Below the pieces are notes generated by a model, which was not told the DNA's origin, did not search any database, and saw only the letters and a program-made list of their open reading frames with translations. 64,000 nucleotides of DNA from Escherichia coli (GTDB taxonomy: Bacteria > Pseudomonadota > Gammaproteobacteria > Enterobacterales > Enterobacteriaceae), in NCBI RefSeq assembly GCF_045037415.1, contig NZ_CP173438.1; one strand, given 5' to 3'. The position numbers were made by a program, and so were the translations under genes. Of the stretch, positions 2,625 to 21,461 are shown one piece after another (the first letter of the stretch is position 1; the number at the start of each line of letters is the position of its first letter).

Positions 2625-3617
2625 ATGACAATGGCTGTTAAAGGCTTAACTGCGCTAACGCTGGCTGACTGGGGTAAGCGCGTCGATCCAAACGGGAAAG
2701 TCGATAAGATTATCGAGCTTCTCGGTCAAACAAACCCGATCCTTCAGGATATGCCTTTTGTCGAAGGGAACCTTCCTACCGGACACCGAACCACCATTCG
2801 TTCTGGTTTACCTTCAGCTACCTGGCGTTTGCTGAACTATGGCGTACAGCCAAGCAAATCAACCACAGTGCAGGTAACCGATTACGTTGGCATGCTGGAA
2901 ACCTATGCTGAAGTCGATAAGTCACTGGCTGATCTGAACGGTAATACTGCCGAATTCCGCCTGTCTGAAGACCGCGCATTTATTGAAGCGATGAATCAGC
3001 AGATGGCGCAGACACTGTTTTATGGTGATTCCAGCGTTAACCCTCAGCAGTTTATGGGACTGTCCTCCCGCTATTCCAGCCTGTCTGCGGGTAATGCTCA
3101 GAACATCATTGATGCTGGTGGCACGAGTACAGATAACACCTCAATCTGGTTAGTGGTGTGGGGCGAAAACACCGTGCATGGCATCTTCCCGAAAGGGCAG
3201 AAGGCTGGCATCCAGATGGAAGATAAAGGCCAGGTGACACTGGAAGATGCGAATGGCGGCAAGTACGAAGGCTACCGTACCCATTACAAATGGGACAACG
3301 GACTTGCTCTGCGTGACTGGCGTTATGTTGTTCGCATTGCAAACATCGATGTCAGCAATCTTTCAGAACCTTCCTCTGCCGCAAATATTGCGAAGTTGAT
3401 GGTTAAAGCACTGCATCGCATTCCAAATCGTGGCATGGGTCGCCCGGTGTTCTACATGAACCGCACTGTAGGCCAGGCTCTTGATCTGCAATCTCTGGAG
3501 AAAACATCTCTGGCGATCAGCGTAAAAGAGACAGAAGGCGAGTGGTGGACTTCATTCCGTGGTGTACCAATCCGTGAAACTGATGCGCTTCTGGAAACAG
3601 AAGCCCGCGTGGTGTAA
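2625..3617 (+). CDS. Major capsid protein (about 330 aa)
   Basis: Position after scaffold; size typical of HK97-fold capsid proteins; ATG at 2631 has the better RBS spacing; stem-loop immediately downstream. Confidence 0.7.
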   Translation: MTMAVKGLTALTLADWGKRVDPNGKVDKIIELLGQTNPILQDMPFVEGNLPTGHRTTIRSGLPSATWRLLNYGVQPSKSTTVQVTDYVGMLETYAEVDKSLADLNGNTAEFRLSEDRAFIEAMNQQMAQTLFYGDSSVNPQQFMGLSSRYSSLSAGNAQNIIDAGGTSTDNTSIWLVVWGENTVHGIFPKGQKAGIQMEDKGQVTLEDANGGKYEGYRTHYKWDNGLALRDWRYVVRIANIDVSNLSEPSSAANIAKLMVKALHRIPNRGMGRPVFYMNRTVGQALDLQSLEKTSLAISVKETEGEWWTSFRGVPIRETDALLETEARVV

Positions 3618-5431: not shown

Positions 5432-7902
5432 TGGCTATCAGTTGGATCCAGCCCAGCTTTGCCGGTGGTGAGATTGGACCGTCGTTGTACGGGCGTATTG
5501 ACATGGCGAAGTACCAGGTGGCATTGCGCAAGTGCGATAACTTTATCGTGCGGCAGTATGGCGGCGTTGAGAATCGACCAGGTACGCGTTTTGTCGGTGC
5601 CGCCAAATACCCAAATCGGAAATGCCGCCTGATCCCGTTCCAGTTCTCGACGGTTCAGACCTATGCTCTGGAGTTCGGACACCAGTACATGCGCGTTATC
5701 AAAGATGGTGCGTTGGTGCTGAACAGCAGCAATGTTATTTATGAAATTGCCACGCCATATACTGAAGCCGATCTGTTCCGAATTAAATTCACGCAAAGCG
5801 CCGACGTGCTTACGCTTGTTCATCCGGCATACCCGCCGAAAGAGTTGCGTCGCTATGCGCATGACAACTGGCAACTGGTTGATGTGGTAACGAAGAACGG
5901 ACCATTTGAAGATATCAATATTGACGAGTCAGTGACGGTTTATGCCAGCGCCAGCACCGGGACAATTACGTTAACGGCAAGCGCCTCTATTTTTGGCGCG
6001 GAGCAGGTAGGCAAATTGTTCTATCTGGAACAGCCTGCAGTGGATTCTGTGCCGGTATGGGAAACCAGTAAGAGTACGTCAATTGGCGATATTCGCCGTG
6101 CAGACAGTAACTACTATCGCGCCGTTACAGTAGGCAAAACAGGCACTTTGCGCCCTTCGCATACAGAAGGCACATCATGGGATGGCTGGGGCGGATCCGG
6201 TGATGATGATACCGGCATTGAGTGGGAGTATCTGCACAGTGGTTTTGGCATTGCCCGTATCTCTGCTGCAAATGGAACTACTGCAACTGCCGAGGTGATT
6301 TCCTATATCCCTTCGCAGGTAGTTGGCGAGGATAATGCCAGCTATAAATGGGCTAAATATGCCTGGAACAGTGTTAATGGTTATCCTGGCACTGTTGTTT
6401 ATTATCAACAACGTCTTTACTTCGCCGCATCGACTGCGTTTCCTCAGACTATCTGGGCCAGCCGTACCGGGGATTATAAGGATTTTGGCAAAAGCAATCC
6501 TACGCAGGATGACGACAGAATTATCTACACCTATGCCGGGCGTCAGGTTAATGAGATCCGCCACCTGATTGATGTTGGTTCGCTGGTGGCGCTGACTTCC
6601 GGAGGTGAGTACGTCATCACTGGCGACCAGAACAAAGTGCTTACCCCATCATCATTTGCATTCAGCTCTCAGGGATCAAATGGCTCGAGCAATGTCCCAC
6701 CAATTGCCGTGGCGAATATTGCTCTGTTCGTCCAAGAGAAAGGCAGTGTTGTCCGTGATCTGGCCTACTCATTCGATGTTGACGGCTATCAGGGGAACGA
6801 CCTGACCATCCTTGCCAATCATCTTTTTCAGAAGCACAGCATTGTTGACTGGTGCTTCTCGATAGTCCCTTACTCCAGCGCCTTCTGCATTCGTGATGAC
6901 GGTAAATTACTGGTGATGACCTATTTGCGTGATCAGCAGGTTTTTGCATGGGCACCACAATCCAGTACCGGAAAATATGAAAGCACATGCAGTATCAGCG
7001 AAGGAAATGAAGATGCGGTGTATTTCGTCGTTAACCGAACCGTTAACGGGCAAACAGTGAGATACATCGAGCGACTGTCCAGCCGTTTATTTACCAGCGA
7101 TGAAGATGCTTTCTTTGTTGATTCTGGCCTTAGCTATGATGGAAGAAATACGTCTGACAGAACGATGATCATCACTGGTGGTTCTGGCGAATGGGATTAC
7201 CGCGAGGAATATACAATCAGTGTTTCTGGTGGTGCGTACTTCACCAGTAGTGATATCGGTGCCCAACTACAGTTCCCTTATACCGGAACTGATCCTGATA
7301 CTGGCGATGAAGTGTCAAAAGAATTACGTTGCGACATTATTTCTGTAACCAGCAATACCGCTGTAGTGGTTCGTGCTAACAGGAACGTCCCGCCATCCCT
7401 CAGGAATGTGGCCACCACGAACTGGCAGATGGCGCGCCGGACATTTGGAGGCCTGTCTCATCTTGAAGGCCAGACCGTAAACATTCTCTCTGATGCGAAC
7501 GTGGAACCACAGAAAGTGGTTTCCGGAGGTGCCGTCACGCTGGAATCTCCGGGGGCTGTAGTGCACATCGGCCTGCCAATAACTGCTGAATTCGAAACAC
7601 TGGATATCAACATTAACGGACAGGAAACGCTGCTGGACAAAAAACAGGTGATCCCCTCCGTTACTCTGGTTGTGAATGCCAGTCGCGGCATCTGGGCGAC
7701 TACGCCCGGCGGTAAATGGTACGAATATCCACAGCGTGAATTCGAGTTCTACGATGATCCTGTTGATGATGCTACCGGAAAAGTAGAAGTGAAACTGGAC
7801 AGTAACTGGGGCAAAAACGGACGTGTAAAAATCCGTCAGCTTGATCCGTTGCCGCTGTCTGTTCTTGCCGTTATTCCTCGCCTTACTGTTGGGGGATTCT
7901 GA
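5431..7902 (+). CDS. Tail tubular protein B-like nozzle protein (823 aa)
   Basis: ATGA overlap with upstream gene; size and position equivalent to T7 gp12. Confidence 0.55.
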   Translation: MAISWIQPSFAGGEIGPSLYGRIDMAKYQVALRKCDNFIVRQYGGVENRPGTRFVGAAKYPNRKCRLIPFQFSTVQTYALEFGHQYMRVIKDGALVLNSSNVIYEIATPYTEADLFRIKFTQSADVLTLVHPAYPPKELRRYAHDNWQLVDVVTKNGPFEDINIDESVTVYASASTGTITLTASASIFGAEQVGKLFYLEQPAVDSVPVWETSKSTSIGDIRRADSNYYRAVTVGKTGTLRPSHTEGTSWDGWGGSGDDDTGIEWEYLHSGFGIARISAANGTTATAEVISYIPSQVVGEDNASYKWAKYAWNSVNGYPGTVVYYQQRLYFAASTAFPQTIWASRTGDYKDFGKSNPTQDDDRIIYTYAGRQVNEIRHLIDVGSLVALTSGGEYVITGDQNKVLTPSSFAFSSQGSNGSSNVPPIAVANIALFVQEKGSVVRDLAYSFDVDGYQGNDLTILANHLFQKHSIVDWCFSIVPYSSAFCIRDDGKLLVMTYLRDQQVFAWAPQSSTGKYESTCSISEGNEDAVYFVVNRTVNGQTVRYIERLSSRLFTSDEDAFFVDSGLSYDGRNTSDRTMIITGGSGEWDYREEYTISVSGGAYFTSSDIGAQLQFPYTGTDPDTGDEVSKELRCDIISVTSNTAVVVRANRNVPPSLRNVATTNWQMARRTFGGLSHLEGQTVNILSDANVEPQKVVSGGAVTLESPGAVVHIGLPITAEFETLDININGQETLLDKKQVIPSVTLVVNASRGIWATTPGGKWYEYPQREFEFYDDPVDDATGKVEVKLDSNWGKNGRVKIRQLDPLPLSVLAVIPRLTVGGF

Positions 7903-15929: not shown

Positions 15930-16310
15930 ATGAGAAAAGTATTTTTGATTTTTGGATTTATGCTTCTCGTTGGATGCCAGTCAGCTGCACAGTTTGAAAG
16001 AAATATGCTTACGTGGCGCGGGCAGAGTATAGACGCAATGGTTCAGCAGTGGGGGTATCCTCAGGGAGAGCTTACATCTCCAGATGGAAACAGAGTGTAT
16101 GTTTACTCAAGCTCTGGTAGTTATAACGTACCACAAACCACAACGTATAATACTACGTCTAATCTAATTGGTAATACTATATATTCAAACACATACGCAA
16201 CAACTGATGGCGGTTATACACTCCATTTCAGTTGCTCTGTTTACGTTGAGTTTGGTGCTGATAAGATTATTAAAAATGTTACATGGCGCGGTAATAATTG
16301 CGTTGCGTGA
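15930..16310 (+). CDS. Lipoprotein (moron), 126 aa
   Basis: Signal peptide MRKVFLIFGFMLLVGC with lipobox LLVGC; AT-rich context; terminator directly downstream. Confidence 0.7.
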   Translation: MRKVFLIFGFMLLVGCQSAAQFERNMLTWRGQSIDAMVQQWGYPQGELTSPDGNRVYVYSSSGSYNVPQTTTYNTTSNLIGNTIYSNTYATTDGGYTLHFSCSVYVEFGADKIIKNVTWRGNNCVA

Positions 16311-16319
16311 CATGTCACA

Positions 16320-16343
16320 GGCCGCTTTCGCGGCCTTGTTTTT
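16320..16343 (+). terminator. Rho-independent terminator after lipoprotein gene
   Basis: GGCCGC-TTTC-GCGGCC hairpin followed by TTGTTTTT. Confidence 0.7.
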
Positions 16344-16503
16344 AACGAATGCCACCGCCACCCGGGCGGGAATCCGCAGAACGCCCACCGCAGCGGGAGC
16401 CGTCAGCAGCAGTGTCGCTGTCGTGCTGACAACGACCGGCAAAGGCCTGAGTTGAAGCTACCAGAGACAACAAAACGAACAGTGCAGCAAATGCTTTTTT
16501 CAT
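16342..16503 (-). CDS. Possible small secreted peptide (53 aa)
   Basis: Signal-peptide-like N-terminus MKKAFAALFVLLSLVASTQAFA; GC-rich low-complexity mature part with two Cys; weak RBS. Confidence 0.3.
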   Translation of the reverse strand: MKKAFAALFVLLSLVASTQAFAGRCQHDSDTAADGSRCGGRSADSRPGGGGIR

Positions 16504-16575
16504 TGTGAAATTTCCATCTATAAGCCACCTCAATGTGGCGTCAATGAGTGTAGCACTGACTTTTGTTTCGTCCAC

Positions 16576-16597
16576 AAAAAAGCCCGCGCTGCGGGCT
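16576..16597 (-). terminator. Rho-independent terminator of the reverse cassette
   Basis: GCCCGC-GCT-GCGGGC hairpin followed by a U-run on the minus strand, directly after the 16602 stop. Confidence 0.7.
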
Positions 16598-16601
16598 TCT
16601 A

Positions 16602-17234
16602 TTAATGCAGTTTATCTTTGCTTATAACCAGTAGTCTGTGGGTATGCACATCTTTATCACTGCCCCAACAGAAATCAGCCCACTGGCTATAGAAATCATC
16701 CCATGATGTCATGAAGCTAAGAGGTCTATCTTCTTCAGAGCCATCTGAAACGTATACATTATATCCTGGGGTGTTTATAGCCCAAGAAATCATTCTTTCC
16801 CAGAATCTTCTCCCATCGATTGTTTGTTGCTCATCAGATACAACGATCGCATATTGCTCTAGGAAGAACTGAAAAAAAATCTGAGGCAAACCATGAACAG
16901 CACGGTCATGAATAACATTAGGCGTACGCCATACCATGATCTGCGTACATGTTCTTTTGGCTTCGACGATATCTTCCCGAAAGATTAACTTAACCGCATA
17001 CACCGTTTCTGGAGTATCGCTGGTAGTAATCATTCTGTAATGATCGCCATTACAAGATTTTACAAGGCGATAACCATAAGGTGTTGTGAATCCCGGAAGA
17101 ACGAAATCAACCACACCTTTCGCTAAGTAGCTTTCGGTGTGACTAGTGTTCTTCTCAGACATGTTCAGTTTTCTATCGAAATCTGCTTCTGGGATAATGT
17201 ATGGCATCGCTTTTCTTGTTGTATTTGTTCTCAT
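16602..17234 (-). CDS. Uncharacterised cargo protein, 210 aa
   Basis: Strong RBS GGGAGG 5 nt before ATG; own sigma70-like promoter and operator upstream; no family recognised; AT-rich. Confidence 0.75.
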   Translation of the reverse strand: MRTNTTRKAMPYIIPEADFDRKLNMSEKNTSHTESYLAKGVVDFVLPGFTTPYGYRLVKSCNGDHYRMITTSDTPETVYAVKLIFREDIVEAKRTCTQIMVWRTPNVIHDRAVHGLPQIFFQFFLEQYAIVVSDEQQTIDGRRFWERMISWAINTPGYNVYVSDGSEEDRPLSFMTSWDDFYSQWADFCWGSDKDVHTHRLLVISKDKLH

Positions 17235-17380: not shown

Positions 17381-18037
17381 TCAGAAGAACCCTGCCTTGT
17401 CGTTGATGTACTCCGCGTGCGTCTGGATATCACGCAGGCATTTGCTCACACCAACGATGTAGCAGAACATGGTGGTCAGCTCCGCCGCCGCGCCCGATAC
17501 GTCGTGCCCGTCGTCCTGTAACTGGTTCAGCAGATTCATCAGCAGTGAGTTCTCCGTCAGGCCGAGAACACCAGACGGCGAGTGAATCAGGCTGCGGTAG
17601 CCGGGCTTCAGTGGGGCACTGTATTCTTTTTTGTCTTCCAGCTTGATCGCCTCCATAATGGCGGGCATGAAGCCTGACAAGACCTTCTCCACTTTTGTTT
17701 CTTGTTGTCTTAAACGTTTCTCGCATTCAATGAAGTAGCGTCGCACCTGGCGACCTTTTTCGTTACGCTCGACCATCGCCAGCTCTTTGGCTGTATCAAG
17801 GGTGAGGTGGTACTCTTTGCGGTTGTGGCCGCCTCTACCAGATGTTTGCTTTCCCAAATTGGAAAGCAAAATATAGTCTTGATTTTCAATGAATTCGTAT
17901 TCTGATATGCGATTTGTAATCCATGCTGCAAACACCTTTTTAACACCTAAAAAAGCGTGCAGATCGCGGGCATTACAAAGTAGGGCTGTTTCGTTAGATA
18001 TAGTGCCGTTGAATACGGGGATGAGTTGAGCGTTCAT
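17381..18037 (-). CDS. Antirepressor-like protein: AntA-type N-terminal domain plus C-terminal domain paralogous to the small SOS-controlled protein
   Basis: GGAG RBS; N-terminal motif [27 protein letters not shown] typical of AntA/AntB antirepressor domains; C-terminal 70 aa about 40% identical to the 18357-18614 product. Confidence 0.65.
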
Positions 18038-18196
18038 GATGGCGTCTCCACTTAGCGAATTACATCACCACCGCTGAGAACCAATCAGATGGTGGTGAAC
18101 TGAACGGAGTTGGTCTTACCGGCCTAAGTGGTACCGGCGTCCTTTCGGACCCCCATTCAGCCCACCATAATTCTGGCATGACTGTGCTATACGCAT

Positions 18197-18218
18197 AAAA
18201 AAACCACGTCTGGCGTGG
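18197..18218 (-). terminator. Putative rho-independent terminator between the small SOS-controlled gene and the antirepressor gene
   Basis: CCACG-N5-CGTGG hairpin followed by seven U on the minus strand; short stem. Confidence 0.4.
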
Positions 18219-18308
18219 TATGCGCCACTTAGTAATCCGGGAGAACCAATCCCGGCACTGGATTTTGCCAGTGCCCGATTACTATGGCACAAGAGGAGTG
18301 CGATGTAA

Positions 18309-18809: not shown

Positions 18810-21461
18810 ATGACGGTTTCAACCGAAGTTGACCACAACGAATACACCGGTAACGGAGCTACGACATCATTTCCGTATACCTTCCGTATTTTCAAAAAAT
18901 CCGACCTGGTTGTTCAGGTGTCTGACCTGAACGGGAACGTAACAGAATTGGTTCTGGATACTGACTACACAGTAACCAATGCTGGAGGATATAATGGCGG
19001 TAATGTAATTCTGTCGAAGGCGTTGGCTAACGGTTATCATATTTCTATATCACGAGAGCTCCCGGTTACGCAGGATACTGATTTGCGTAATCAGGGTAAG
19101 TTCTTCGCTGAGGTACATGAAGACGCGTTCGATAAACTGACAATGCTTATTCAAAAGTGTTTTTCATGGATGAGGTTAGCACTTATAAAACCAAGCATTC
19201 TGGCTAACTATTATGATGCAAAAAATAATAAGATATCAAATCTAGCAAATGCCACTGACAGAAACGATGCTGTCAATAAAGGTTATGTTGATGATCTTTT
19301 TACTGGAGGTGTAACGCCTACATCTAACAGCGCTAAAAACGATATTTTTACAAATCACCAAAGAAAGATTGTAGCTACGATGCCGCTTCTTTTTCCTGAA
19401 TATGATGCGATTATGGCTGCTAACCCGTCAGCAACTTATATGTATCCTCAAGGATTCTGCGTTAGCGAAGATTTGATATACATCACTTATCCATTTGAGC
19501 CTAAACAGACGAATAATGTCGTCGCAGTATTTAACATATCTGGTATTTATCAAGGTTATTTCTATGTTCAGGCTGGCGGCCCAGGCTTCGCTGCTGAAGG
19601 AATCGTGGTTACGTCAGACTATGGCCCCAAAAAAATGTTTGTTGGTCACACAAACGGAATACTGCGTGAATTTAATATGGAGGGGGCATTATACGGAAGC
19701 AATCTGCCTCTTGTACAAAACCATGATGTTGGATTATTCAACCAGTTCAGCTACAGAAGAGGTATATGGCTCGTTGAGCAGAATGCGCCAGAAGTAGGAC
19801 AGAAAATCACAAGAACTGTACTTGCAGTGTTCGACAGTGGTTTCAATCGCCTGTCAACTATAACGCTGCCGTTACATGATGTTGGGTATGTAACTAAAAG
19901 CACCTCACCTTATGCGCCTTATTTCAACAAGCGTCAGGGTATTGCGGTAGGTGATAACTACTTTGTCTGCGGCTATGGCGGCTTCATAGCTGATGGGGCA
20001 GGAAGCGCAGGATATAACGAATATCAGGGCAGCAAAGTTTTTAACCCTGACGGTACAAAGCGAACTGAATCAATGCTTCATCCTCAGGCCATGATGGATT
20101 TAATGAAAGCCGCAGGATTGAACGTCACTCGCATAGAAAATGAAGGCGTTTGTGTTTCTCAGGATGGAAAATCCATTTATTCACTTTACATTCATCAGGA
20201 AAGAACTGGCTCTGAACCTTACAATTCAGGTTTGGTTATTTTCGAAGATTTCTCCACTGATAAAGATGCTATCGATTTTACACCTGCATCCAGGCTTTAC
20301 CGCGGATTTGATATCGATCACGCGAGCATTGGGGTATATCCCCGTAGTGCGAAGGGGATTGTTAACCCTGTAGATGGTACGTTGTTCACTAACATGACTG
20401 AAATTCTTCGCTATATGCAGGAGATGAGTCAGAAGGCATTTAATTTTTACACAGGGACTGTCAGCATTGCTGATATATCTGGCGTGGCAATCCCTTCCAG
20501 CACATATGTTGAAATACTGAATGCGAATAATCAGACTTTTATAGTCAACTATTATTCATCTGATAGTGGCATTAGTTATTTGGTTGCAACTAATCCTTCT
20601 GGTGACTTTGTATTTGTGCGCCAGCGACCGGCACAGTGGGCATCTAACTTAACCATTCAGCAAAACGCAGATCCTGATACAAACCAATTAAACCGCATCA
20701 CTGCATCATCATATGCCGGTGCAACTACAAACTCTCAGAAAATATTGGTCCTTGACCAGCAGGCTACAGCTAGCGCAAATAGCTTGGTATTGGGCGGTAG
20801 TTCTTCTGTGTTTAGGTCTGCCACCACGGTGGATATTGCATGCAACAGCGACCCGACAGCATTGGGAGGAACCATACGCTGGCGGTTTTATGATACAGGT
20901 CTTCGCCCGTTTGCTGACAATACCTATAATTTTGGTCAGGCATCGTTTCGTATTAAAGACGCCTACTTTGCAAATGCCCCAACCGTTTCATCAGATGCCA
21001 CGCTGAAAACCAATCCCGAGGCAATATCAGATTTAAGTGAAATGCTTTCTTCTGATAGAGACAGCATTCTTGATGCCTGGGGCGATATTTCTGTTGTGGC
21101 GTATCGATGGCTCGACGCTATATCCATGAAGGGCGATGGTGCCAGATGGCATTTTGGCGTCATGGCTCAGCAGGTAAGGGATGTATTCTTGGCGCACGGA
21201 ATTGATGGAACCAGATTTGGCCTTCTTTGCTATGACGAGTGGGATGATATTTTTGAGCCGGTAATCGCGACTAAAGAGATTACCGATACGTCTGGTGAGT
21301 TGGTCACCGTCGAATATGACACCGGAGAACAGAGGCTGGTTAAAAAAGCGGGTAGTTCATGGGGTATACGGCCTGACCAGTGCGCTTGGCTTGAGGCTGC
21401 ATATCAGCGCCGTCGATGCGATCGTATTGAAGAGCGACTCGAACTATTGGAATCAAAATAA
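18810..21461 (+). CDS. Tailspike protein with C-terminal intramolecular chaperone (peptidase S74-like) domain, 883 aa
   Basis: RBS CTGGAG; conserved-looking N-terminal virion-anchor region; C-terminal block (RWHFGVMAQQVRDVF...) resembles the self-cleaving chaperone domain of endosialidases and tail fibres. Confidence 0.75.
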   Translation: MTVSTEVDHNEYTGNGATTSFPYTFRIFKKSDLVVQVSDLNGNVTELVLDTDYTVTNAGGYNGGNVILSKALANGYHISISRELPVTQDTDLRNQGKFFAEVHEDAFDKLTMLIQKCFSWMRLALIKPSILANYYDAKNNKISNLANATDRNDAVNKGYVDDLFTGGVTPTSNSAKNDIFTNHQRKIVATMPLLFPEYDAIMAANPSATYMYPQGFCVSEDLIYITYPFEPKQTNNVVAVFNISGIYQGYFYVQAGGPGFAAEGIVVTSDYGPKKMFVGHTNGILREFNMEGALYGSNLPLVQNHDVGLFNQFSYRRGIWLVEQNAPEVGQKITRTVLAVFDSGFNRLSTITLPLHDVGYVTKSTSPYAPYFNKRQGIAVGDNYFVCGYGGFIADGAGSAGYNEYQGSKVFNPDGTKRTESMLHPQAMMDLMKAAGLNVTRIENEGVCVSQDGKSIYSLYIHQERTGSEPYNSGLVIFEDFSTDKDAIDFTPASRLYRGFDIDHASIGVYPRSAKGIVNPVDGTLFTNMTEILRYMQEMSQKAFNFYTGTVSIADISGVAIPSSTYVEILNANNQTFIVNYYSSDSGISYLVATNPSGDFVFVRQRPAQWASNLTIQQNADPDTNQLNRITASSYAGATTNSQKILVLDQQATASANSLVLGGSSSVFRSATTVDIACNSDPTALGGTIRWRFYDTGLRPFADNTYNFGQASFRIKDAYFANAPTVSSDATLKTNPEAISDLSEMLSSDRDSILDAWGDISVVAYRWLDAISMKGDGARWHFGVMAQQVRDVFLAHGIDGTRFGLLCYDEWDDIFEPVIATKEITDTSGELVTVEYDTGEQRLVKKAGSSWGIRPDQCAWLEAAYQRRRCDRIEERLELLESK

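Follow-up and report, generated by a model that had tools for sequence, protein, structure and literature searches.

The gene and its start codon

The stretch of Escherichia coli DNA analysed here (the window; 64,000 nucleotides of contig NZ_CP173438.1, assembly GCF_045037415.1) carries an epsilon15/phiV10-like (Uetakevirus) prophage. Within this prophage we studied a minus-strand gene of 162 nt that encodes a 53-residue precursor with a predicted signal peptide. A sequence-only reading of the window had earlier flagged the locus as a possible small secreted peptide gene in a GC-rich island. Both the open reading frame (ORF) and the island are present. The mechanical ORF listing contains a minus-strand frame at 16342-16575 that has a GTG start, is 77 aa long and ends with TAA at 16344-16342, and the GC content is 0.585 at 16300-16499 compared to 0.35-0.43 on either side. 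The start of the real coding sequence (CDS) is the ATG at 16503 and not the GTG, because diverged homologues have an in-frame TAA between both positions (e.g. ...TGG TAA GTG AAA ATG). When the last 53 codons of the ORF were read from ATG 16503, the translation was MKKAFAALFVLLSLVASTQAFAGRCQHDSDTAADGSRCGGRSADSRPGGGGIR. The product consists of the signal peptide MKKAFAALFVLLSLVASTQAFA followed by the mature part GRCQHDSDTAADGSRCGGRSADSRPGGGGIR. The gene and its parts are listed below; the CDS rests on translation, annotation, a profile match and the ratio of nonsynonymous to synonymous substitution rates (dN/dS).

16342-16503, minus strand: CDS of the 53-aa precursor, from ATG 16503-16501 to stop TAA 16344-16342
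16438-16503, minus strand: codons M1-A22 of the predicted signal peptide, with MKK, a 13-residue hydrophobic core and STQAFA; cleavage placed by the (-3,-1) rule
16345-16437, minus strand: codons G23-R53 of the predicted mature peptide of 31 aa, with the mini-domain C25...G49 and two invariant cysteines 12 residues apart

The 162-nt CDS with the ATG start is also annotated for the gene in RefSeq and GenBank. Identical copies are F365_gp43 of TL-2011b (YP_007001994.1), Orf11 of phiv142-3 (QGF19617.1) and RefSeq WP_000708858.1, with 100% identity over the 53 aa and the same prophage slot. The PHROGs family phrog_14503, of the moron category, matched residues 1-53 of 53 with an E-value of 2.3e-40. 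The protein is named "hypothetical" or "transmembrane anchored protein" in RefSeq/NCBI and "membrane associated" in PHROGs. As the ORF is already in the databases as a hypothetical protein, the gene itself is no new discovery. It is a real, strongly conserved prophage accessory gene, and its family is uncharacterised and widespread.

The GC content of the mature-peptide codons is 0.667, with 0.375 and 0.407 in the flanks. Since the GC content at third codon positions of the mature part (0.548) is near the window mean (0.504), the GC island reflects a peptide rich in Gly, Ala, Arg and Pro and not foreign DNA. The Shine-Dalgarno sequence is weak (GGAA, 11-14 nt ahead of the ATG), as the sequence-only reading had observed. 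Its interpretation as a sign of decay did not hold, since the weak ribosome-binding site is a conserved property of the family.

A five-codon upstream ORF was seen on the minus strand at 16500-16517 (ATG GAA ATT TCA CAA TGA) in the E. coli lineage, with its stop codon overlapping the peptide start as ATGA. It is probably incidental and is not conserved, because its ATG is ACG in several diverged homologues. The overlapping ORFs 16168-16455 (plus strand) and 16185-16442 (minus strand) were rejected, as the variation lies only at third positions of the peptide frame.

Selection on the precursor

Homologous loci were gathered from viral contigs and assemblies, and 68 distinct CDSs were extracted. 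The comparison with related prophages, which the sequence-only reading had proposed, favoured the gene: the frame was intact in all 68 CDSs and across genera. For the two parts of the precursor, the following values were obtained.

Conserved core Cys25-Gly49: dN/dS 0.021, dS 1.08; variable sites at codon positions 1/2/3 are 6/4/25 of 25
Signal peptide: dN/dS 0.17, dS 0.65; variable sites at codon positions 1/2/3 are 18/12/21 of 22

Purifying selection falls on the hydrophilic C-terminal 27-31 residues. Each invariant core residue is written with 2-5 synonymous codons across the 68 CDSs. The signal-peptide sequence drifts while its hydrophobic character and the AxA↓G cleavage motif (the arrow marks the predicted cut) are retained. 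Residue -1 is Ala in 68 of the 68 CDSs, spelled by four codons, and residue +1 is Gly in all of them; at -3, Ala, Ser or Val is found. Because AxA↓G is invariant at -1 and +1, with several codons for each residue, the predicted cleavage site appears to be under selection. We conclude that the selection pattern is that of a cleaved secretory precursor in which the exported part does the work.

The signal peptide was assigned by inspection, with the n-region MKK and the hydrophobic core AFAALFVLLSLVA followed by STQAFA↓G. In this rule-based reading, it has the features of a substrate of Sec and signal peptidase I: a basic n-region, an h-region within 7-15 residues and small uncharged residues at -3 and -1. 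A lipoprotein cleaved by signal peptidase II was rejected, since the context of the first cysteine is A-F-A-G-R-C, without the lipobox L-[AS]-[GA]-C. In nearly all homologues, at least two residues (GR, GN or GSGR) stand between the AxA site and the cysteine. An AlphaFold2 model of the mature 31-mer had a pLDDT of 72 and consists of loops with one beta-bridge inside the Cys-Cys loop; a Foldseek search of this model against the Protein Data Bank (PDB) returned no neighbour.

Taken together, these data bear out the secreted-peptide call of the sequence-only reading, including its signal peptide (MKK n-region, 13-residue core, AFA↓G by sequence rules). The selection is specific for the peptide frame (core dN/dS 0.02), AxA↓G is invariant and homologues extend across the Enterobacterales and beyond. 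With strong purifying selection and hundreds of homologues, the ORF is also more than a chance occurrence, as that reading had supposed. Its suggestion of a decayed remnant is refuted: no part of the protein is more conserved than the mature part with its look of low complexity, which also recurs as a mini-domain in larger proteins.

Promoter and 5' leader

The upstream regions of 20 diverged homologues were aligned for promoter and hairpin conservation. Three elements are of interest.

16547-16574, minus strand: best-conserved sigma-70 promoter candidate, with -35 TGGACG at 16574-16569, a 16-nt spacer and -10 TACACT at 16552-16547
16517-16544, minus strand: promoter candidate of the sequence-only reading, TTGACG-N16-TATAGA (TTGACG 16544-16539, TATAGA 16522-16517), overlapping the conserved hairpin
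16524-16539, minus strand: conserved 5-bp hairpin GCCAC-ATTGAG-GTGGC, about 20 nt before the start codon, at the predicted mRNA 5' end

In the -10 box TAnnnT of the first candidate, the T, the A and the final T are invariant in 20 of the 20 regions; the variants found elsewhere are TACAAT, TATGAT, TATAAA and TACGCT. This hexamer lies about 30 nt further upstream than the -10 proposed by the sequence-only reading. That second motif is present as described, but its role as a promoter is doubtful: its -35 is not conserved, its -10 reads TA[CT]A[CG]A across the diverged homologues and lacks the final T, and the leader would be only about 7 nt long. TGGACG-N16-TACACT is the better-supported candidate, and a transcript from it would begin at the 5-bp hairpin; the upstream alignment gives modest support for this assignment.

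The hairpin at 16524-16539 is present in the minimum free energy and centroid folds and in the RNAalifold consensus of the 20 upstream regions. Compensatory changes were found in 2 of its 5 pairs (CG to UA in 5 sequences and AU to GC in 1). For a stem of only 5 bp, this is modest evidence that the structure may be conserved. An Rfam search of the cassette region described below gave no family match.

The peptide gene lies in a mobile cassette

The peptide gene is the only gene of a 292-bp unit, which is bordered by the following elements.

16306-16597, minus strand: mobile cassette of 292 bp with terminator, promoter, 5' hairpin, CDS and hairpin
16575-16600, minus strand: intrinsic terminator of the upstream gene 16602-17234, with a 10-bp GC-rich stem followed by UUUUUU (dG -15.3 kcal/mol, z -3.1)
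16319-16336, both strands: GC-rich hairpin common to the convergent genes; on the plus strand a terminator with a T-run (scan), on the minus strand placed after the peptide stop and without a U-tract

Homology to other E. coli phages and prophages has its limits at 16305/6 and 16597/8 in most of 86 loci, and at least 10 different sequences adjoin the upstream edge. The cassette occupies one fixed slot of Uetakevirus prophages, with variable neighbours in the three examples inspected; at this site, phiV10 has the terminator only. Among 5426 complete E. coli genomes, 536 carry the cassette, nearly always on the chromosome. Human and animal isolates often carry it, blood-culture strains among them.

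The terminator at 16575-16600 forms the right-hand edge of the cassette and stays with it in many loci while the sequence beyond changes. Its predicted effect is to insulate the peptide gene from read-through. The stem is kept across carriers, with a variable 3-nt loop (AGC, GCT, GCC, ACT, GTT or AAC), and in a few loci the hairpin is replaced. At the other end, the hairpin at 16319-16336 folds with -17.9 kcal/mol on the minus strand and -16.5 kcal/mol on the plus strand; the equivalent site of phiV10 is annotated as a terminator.

In the order of the genes, an operon for large internal/ejection proteins (...13236-15710) is followed by the lipoprotein gene 15930-16310 and the peptide gene. Beyond the peptide gene lie a gene for a 210-aa protein, the gene of an AntA-type antirepressor, accompanied by a C4-like antisense RNA, and, at 18810, the tailspike gene. 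The plus-strand gene 15930-16310 encodes a 126-aa protein with a lipoprotein signal (MRKVFLIFGFMLLVGC...) that belongs to phrog_3716, to which no function is assigned, and has no match to a Pfam family. The gene runs towards the peptide gene, and the hairpin between them is common to both. As its slot holds different genes elsewhere, it is a second variable accessory gene. The minus-strand gene 16602-17234 encodes the 210-aa protein, which matched phrog_1349 (E 3e-113; function unassigned) and had no counterpart in Pfam, NCBIfam or PADLOC. Elsewhere, prophages have a YafO-family toxin or a DUF2335 protein in the slot of this gene.

Further upstream on the minus strand, Rfam matches were obtained for the C4 antisense RNA (RF01695, 61 bits, 18088-18172) and for the Hfq-binding RNA isrK (RF01394, 61 bits, 18197-18274), together with a sub-threshold match to the c4 a1/b1 target element at 18234-18287. 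They lie just upstream of the AntA-domain antirepressor gene 17381-18037 and constitute a P1/P7-type immI module in a Uetakevirus-like prophage. The C4 RNA was considered as a regulator of the peptide leader and rejected: the duplex was predicted at -20.0 kcal/mol compared to a mean of -19.6 for shuffled sequences, and there is no apparent targeting.

The mini-domain defines a wider family

Close homologues with 70-100% identity occur in E. coli, Shigella, Salmonella, Citrobacter, Klebsiella, Cronobacter, Pectobacterium, Dickeya and others, most of them under the label "transmembrane anchored protein". When 1.84 billion representative proteins were searched with a profile, 343 clusters were returned. 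A second profile search returned 1763 proteins and reached Pseudomonas, Mesorhizobium, Methylobacterium, Microvirga and the cyanobacterium Dolichospermum. From 155 distant copies, a mini-domain of about 27 residues was derived with the consensus G-[NP]-C-x-[YH]-[PS]-x-[DQ]-x-A-x-D-G-S-R-C-G-x-R-[AS]-A-x-x-R-P-G-G, or C-x12-C-G-x-R-[SA]-A-x-x-R-P-G-G in its short form. Scans of the peptide and 20 distant members against Pfam, NCBIfam and PADLOC found no family for this domain, and a sequence profile search of the PDB with the domain gave no match at E <= 10.

About half of the architectures are stand-alone, with a signal peptide followed by the domain; others are extended at the C-terminus after the signal peptide, and some have two or three copies. 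In about 50 distant members, the domain stands at the very C-terminus of a longer protein, after a hydrophobic segment. In the majority of copies, the domain is preceded by a signal peptide or a membrane helix, and some larger proteins have lipoprotein signals. In one related form with four cysteines, the arrangement is helix, GNCPCPYNxASNGSRCGGRSAYSRPGGxxPLCY, helix, in secreted proteins of about 95 aa. These four-Cys relatives are sometimes fused to SH3_3 (SH3b) or PG_binding_1 domains, and three of them lie among genes typical of mobile or accessory DNA (Toprim primase, resolvase and kinases).

Matches in viral contigs numbered 307. The gene is carried by 12 GenBank phages, all from E. coli or Klebsiella, and those whose annotation was viewed are Uetakevirus-like. 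Prophages of Klebsiella, Pectobacterium and Microvirga also have homologues, as does a second type of E. coli phage. For the stand-alone forms, every context examined was a phage, a prophage or phage-like, and several types were represented. In a Klebsiella prophage, a gene at locus coordinates 6711-7094 encodes a Rap1a-domain protein (type VI secretion amidase-immunity fold). This gene is two genes away from the homologue of the peptide, and both belong to the accessory region that follows the ejection-protein genes.

Comparison with known systems

The protein called "transmembrane anchored" at NCBI and grouped in phrog_14503 is the same protein. The name is an annotation label only, and the sequence argues instead for a cleaved, soluble periplasmic peptide. 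Phage morons, as defined in lambdoid phages, are accessory genes that bring a promoter and a terminator of their own. The cassette resembles them in being a separate insert at whose sharp edges the homology ends, with hairpins or terminators on either side, a promoter-like element, transcription against the late operon and variable neighbours. It differs from them in that its base composition is explained by the amino-acid content and not by foreign origin, and in that the downstream hairpin of the peptide gene has no U-tract on its own strand.

The peptide may be likened to the superinfection-exclusion proteins of the envelope, T4 Sp and Imm, P22 SieA, T5 Llp and phi80 Cor, as a stand-alone product of a temperate phage, presumably exported to the envelope and encoded beside the ejection-protein/immunity region. 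It is far smaller (31 residues when mature), and no similarity in sequence or fold to these proteins was found. For a role in exclusion, the nearest working analogies are T4 Sp/Imm, P22 SieA and HxsA (described below), but the peptide belongs to none of these families. The slot between the ejection-protein operon and the ant/tailspike region would correspond to the place where phage P22 carries sieA.

HxsA, the recently described effector of the HXS defence system, works in the periplasm and prevents phage DNA from entering (PMC13128918). It is similar in that both are small periplasmic effectors with a signal peptide, if the peptide is exported as predicted, and in that some four-Cys relatives carry PG_binding_1 as HxsA does (PMC13128918). 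The peptide differs in having no His-x-Ser repeats, and the single HDS of the E. coli form is not conserved. Membership in the HxsA group was rejected: the NCBIfam HxsA3 model scored 12.9 bits against a cut-off of 65, and no radical-SAM neighbours (HxsB/C) were found at the loci examined.

The Excalibur calcium-binding domain (PF05901) has the motif DxDxDGxxCE. Both it and the mini-domain are short extracellular loops of Asp and Gly bracketed by cysteine, with ...D-x-D-x-x-x-D-G-S-R-C-G in the peptide and ...D-x-D-x-D-G-x-x-C-E in Excalibur. The spacing is unlike, and only two acidic positions are conserved across the mini-domain family. This assignment was rejected, as Pfam gave no match at E <= 1 for the peptide or at E <= 0.1 for the 20 distant members.

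Proposed function and alternatives

We are highly confident of the basic picture, in which a Uetakevirus prophage carries a 292-bp cassette with a gene under selection and in which sequence rules predict export by Sec, cleavage, a disulphide and a promoter of its own. The precursor would be a substrate of Sec export, and signal peptidase I would cleave it after AFA22. In the periplasm, the resulting 31-residue peptide would then form one disulphide between Cys25 and Cys38. The gene would be transcribed from its own sigma-70 promoter, and as the terminator upstream and the hairpin downstream may insulate it, it should be expressible in the lysogen.

In the periplasm or at the cell wall, the peptide would act on behalf of the mobile element. 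An envelope or mobile-element role is suggested because of the stand-alone design, the recurrence in temperate phages and in contexts that look like mobile elements, the fusions to wall-binding domains and the slot by the ejection and immunity genes. From this context, we consider it probable that the peptide acts at the envelope for the prophage. The leading candidate role would be to hinder the entry of an incoming phage or DNA (superinfection or entry exclusion) via an envelope or peptidoglycan-associated target, although exclusion as the specific function is a tentative proposal that we hold to be rather unlikely. As the best overall explanation, we somewhat favour a Sec-exported periplasmic peptide that serves the prophage at the cell envelope and may be involved in entry exclusion.

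Several observations weigh against this explanation. A few members of the family have two hydrophobic segments before the domain, which would place the domain in the cytoplasm unless the gene models are wrong. PADLOC gave no match for the peptide, and a literature search by sequence strings, accessions and database name found no paper that mentions the protein. The consensus promoter scan did not list TGGACG-N16-TACACT (16547-16574), and the proposed promoter is only a conserved match to the consensus. The Shine-Dalgarno sequence is weak. An electrostatic grip on DNA as for HxsA is not obvious, because the net charge of the mature peptide is only about +1. In a transcript survey of the phiv142-3 lysogen, the serum-induced genes include orf10 but not orf11, which is the peptide gene (PMC7724020).

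In a different explanation, the exported peptide is a lysogenic-conversion factor for host fitness or virulence. Instead of blocking other phages, it would alter an envelope property of the lysogen, for example its resistance to serum or stress, the turnover of its cell wall or its envelope signalling. The same moron-type anatomy of the cassette and the export of the peptide would fit, as would the frequency of the cassette in human and animal isolates and in blood-culture strains. The phiv142-3 prophage raises the serum survival of avian pathogenic E. coli with a contribution of the small gene orf10, and it carries an identical copy of the peptide as Orf11 next to orf10 (PMC7724020). orf10 encodes a 52-aa hypothetical protein and is reported to raise serum resistance and capsule gene expression in these bacteria (PMC7724020). 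Orf11, however, is not reported among the serum-induced products (PMC7724020), and the occurrence of the family in soil and plant bacteria and in a cyanobacterium (Microvirga, Mesorhizobium, Methylobacterium and Dolichospermum) argues against a role specific for animal hosts. We regard a conversion factor as unlikely, though it is the most serious competitor. At the phiv142-3 locus, orf10 (locus coordinates 3443-3601) adjoins the identical cassette; in the window, 16602-17234 takes that position.

It is less likely still that the precursor remains uncleaved, with the N-terminal helix in the inner membrane and the 31-residue domain tethered at its periplasmic face. The names given by NCBI and PHROGs speak for such an anchor, and the roughly 50 distant members with the domain at the C-terminus after a hydrophobic segment show that a tethered form exists. 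No paper was found behind the names, however. Because the hydrophobic core has only 13 residues, the helix would make no stable membrane anchor. AxA↓G with its several codons is invariant at -1 and +1 in the 68 CDSs, and the rate of evolution is about 8 times higher in the hydrophobic segment than in the domain. A released signal, as in the arbitrium-like communication between phages, or a weapon of the microcin or bacteriocin type, made of the whole peptide or a C-terminal fragment, is very improbable. The peptide is small, exported and Gly/Ser-rich as would suit this role, it comes from temperate phages, and many members end just past ...R-P-G-G-x. Such ends loosely recall the C-terminal mature arbitrium peptides. 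The constraint, however, covers the whole 27-residue domain and not merely a short tail, the 292-bp cassette brings along no gene for a receptor, immunity or export, the leader is of the Sec and not the double-glycine type, and the domain is also found inside larger envelope proteins. An AimP-type arbitrium peptide was rejected on the lack of a travelling partner gene (AimR) and on the constraint of the entire domain, and a class II microcin or bacteriocin on the Sec-type leader and the single-gene cassette with varying neighbours, where a double-glycine leader and a linked immunity gene and ABC exporter would be expected.

Two further explanations are weaker again. A type I toxin-like small membrane peptide, held in check by RNA structure or an antisense RNA, would be small, borne by a prophage and preceded by a weak ribosome-binding site, and the conserved 5' leader hairpin would suit it. 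Hok-like toxins share an N-terminal helix and a Cys-containing tail. We consider this highly improbable, as the promoter scan found nothing promoter-like for an antisense RNA across the leader or start codon, Rfam gave no match, selection acts on the hydrophilic tail and the cleavage site but not on the helix, and the same domain stands after true signal peptides and lipoprotein signals in larger proteins. That the ORF is decayed, non-functional or a chance product of a GC-rich spacer can practically be dismissed. Its low-complexity look, the weak Shine-Dalgarno sequence and the missing match in domain databases would be in line with such an origin. Against it stand the dN/dS of 0.02 at saturating dS, the third-position-only variation in the peptide frame, the roughly 1760 homologues and the intact frame across genera.

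Returning to the exported envelope peptide, a broader proposal can be made for the whole family. The mini-domain DGSRCG-x-R-[SA]-A-x-x-RPGG might define a new family of periplasmic effectors of mobile elements that exclude incoming phages or DNA by binding to the cell wall or to a trans-envelope entry apparatus, with the E. coli 31-mer as the minimal stand-alone form. This is speculative and, in our view, improbable as it stands.

Significance

The peptide gene is present in about one in ten complete E. coli genomes, and from genus to genus the mature part of its product hardly varies. The family comprises about 1760 proteins, and we found no Pfam model, solved structure or publication for it. 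Prophage genes for small exported proteins frequently escape notice or keep the label "hypothetical"; this one is unusually amenable to study, as a single gene of 162 nt is simple to express or delete. If it had no phenotype, it would be an ordinary annotated hypothetical gene. If the peptide does block the entry of phages or DNA, or changes the envelope, it would be a very small and widespread addition to the host modifications encoded by prophages, with relevance to the host range in phage therapy.

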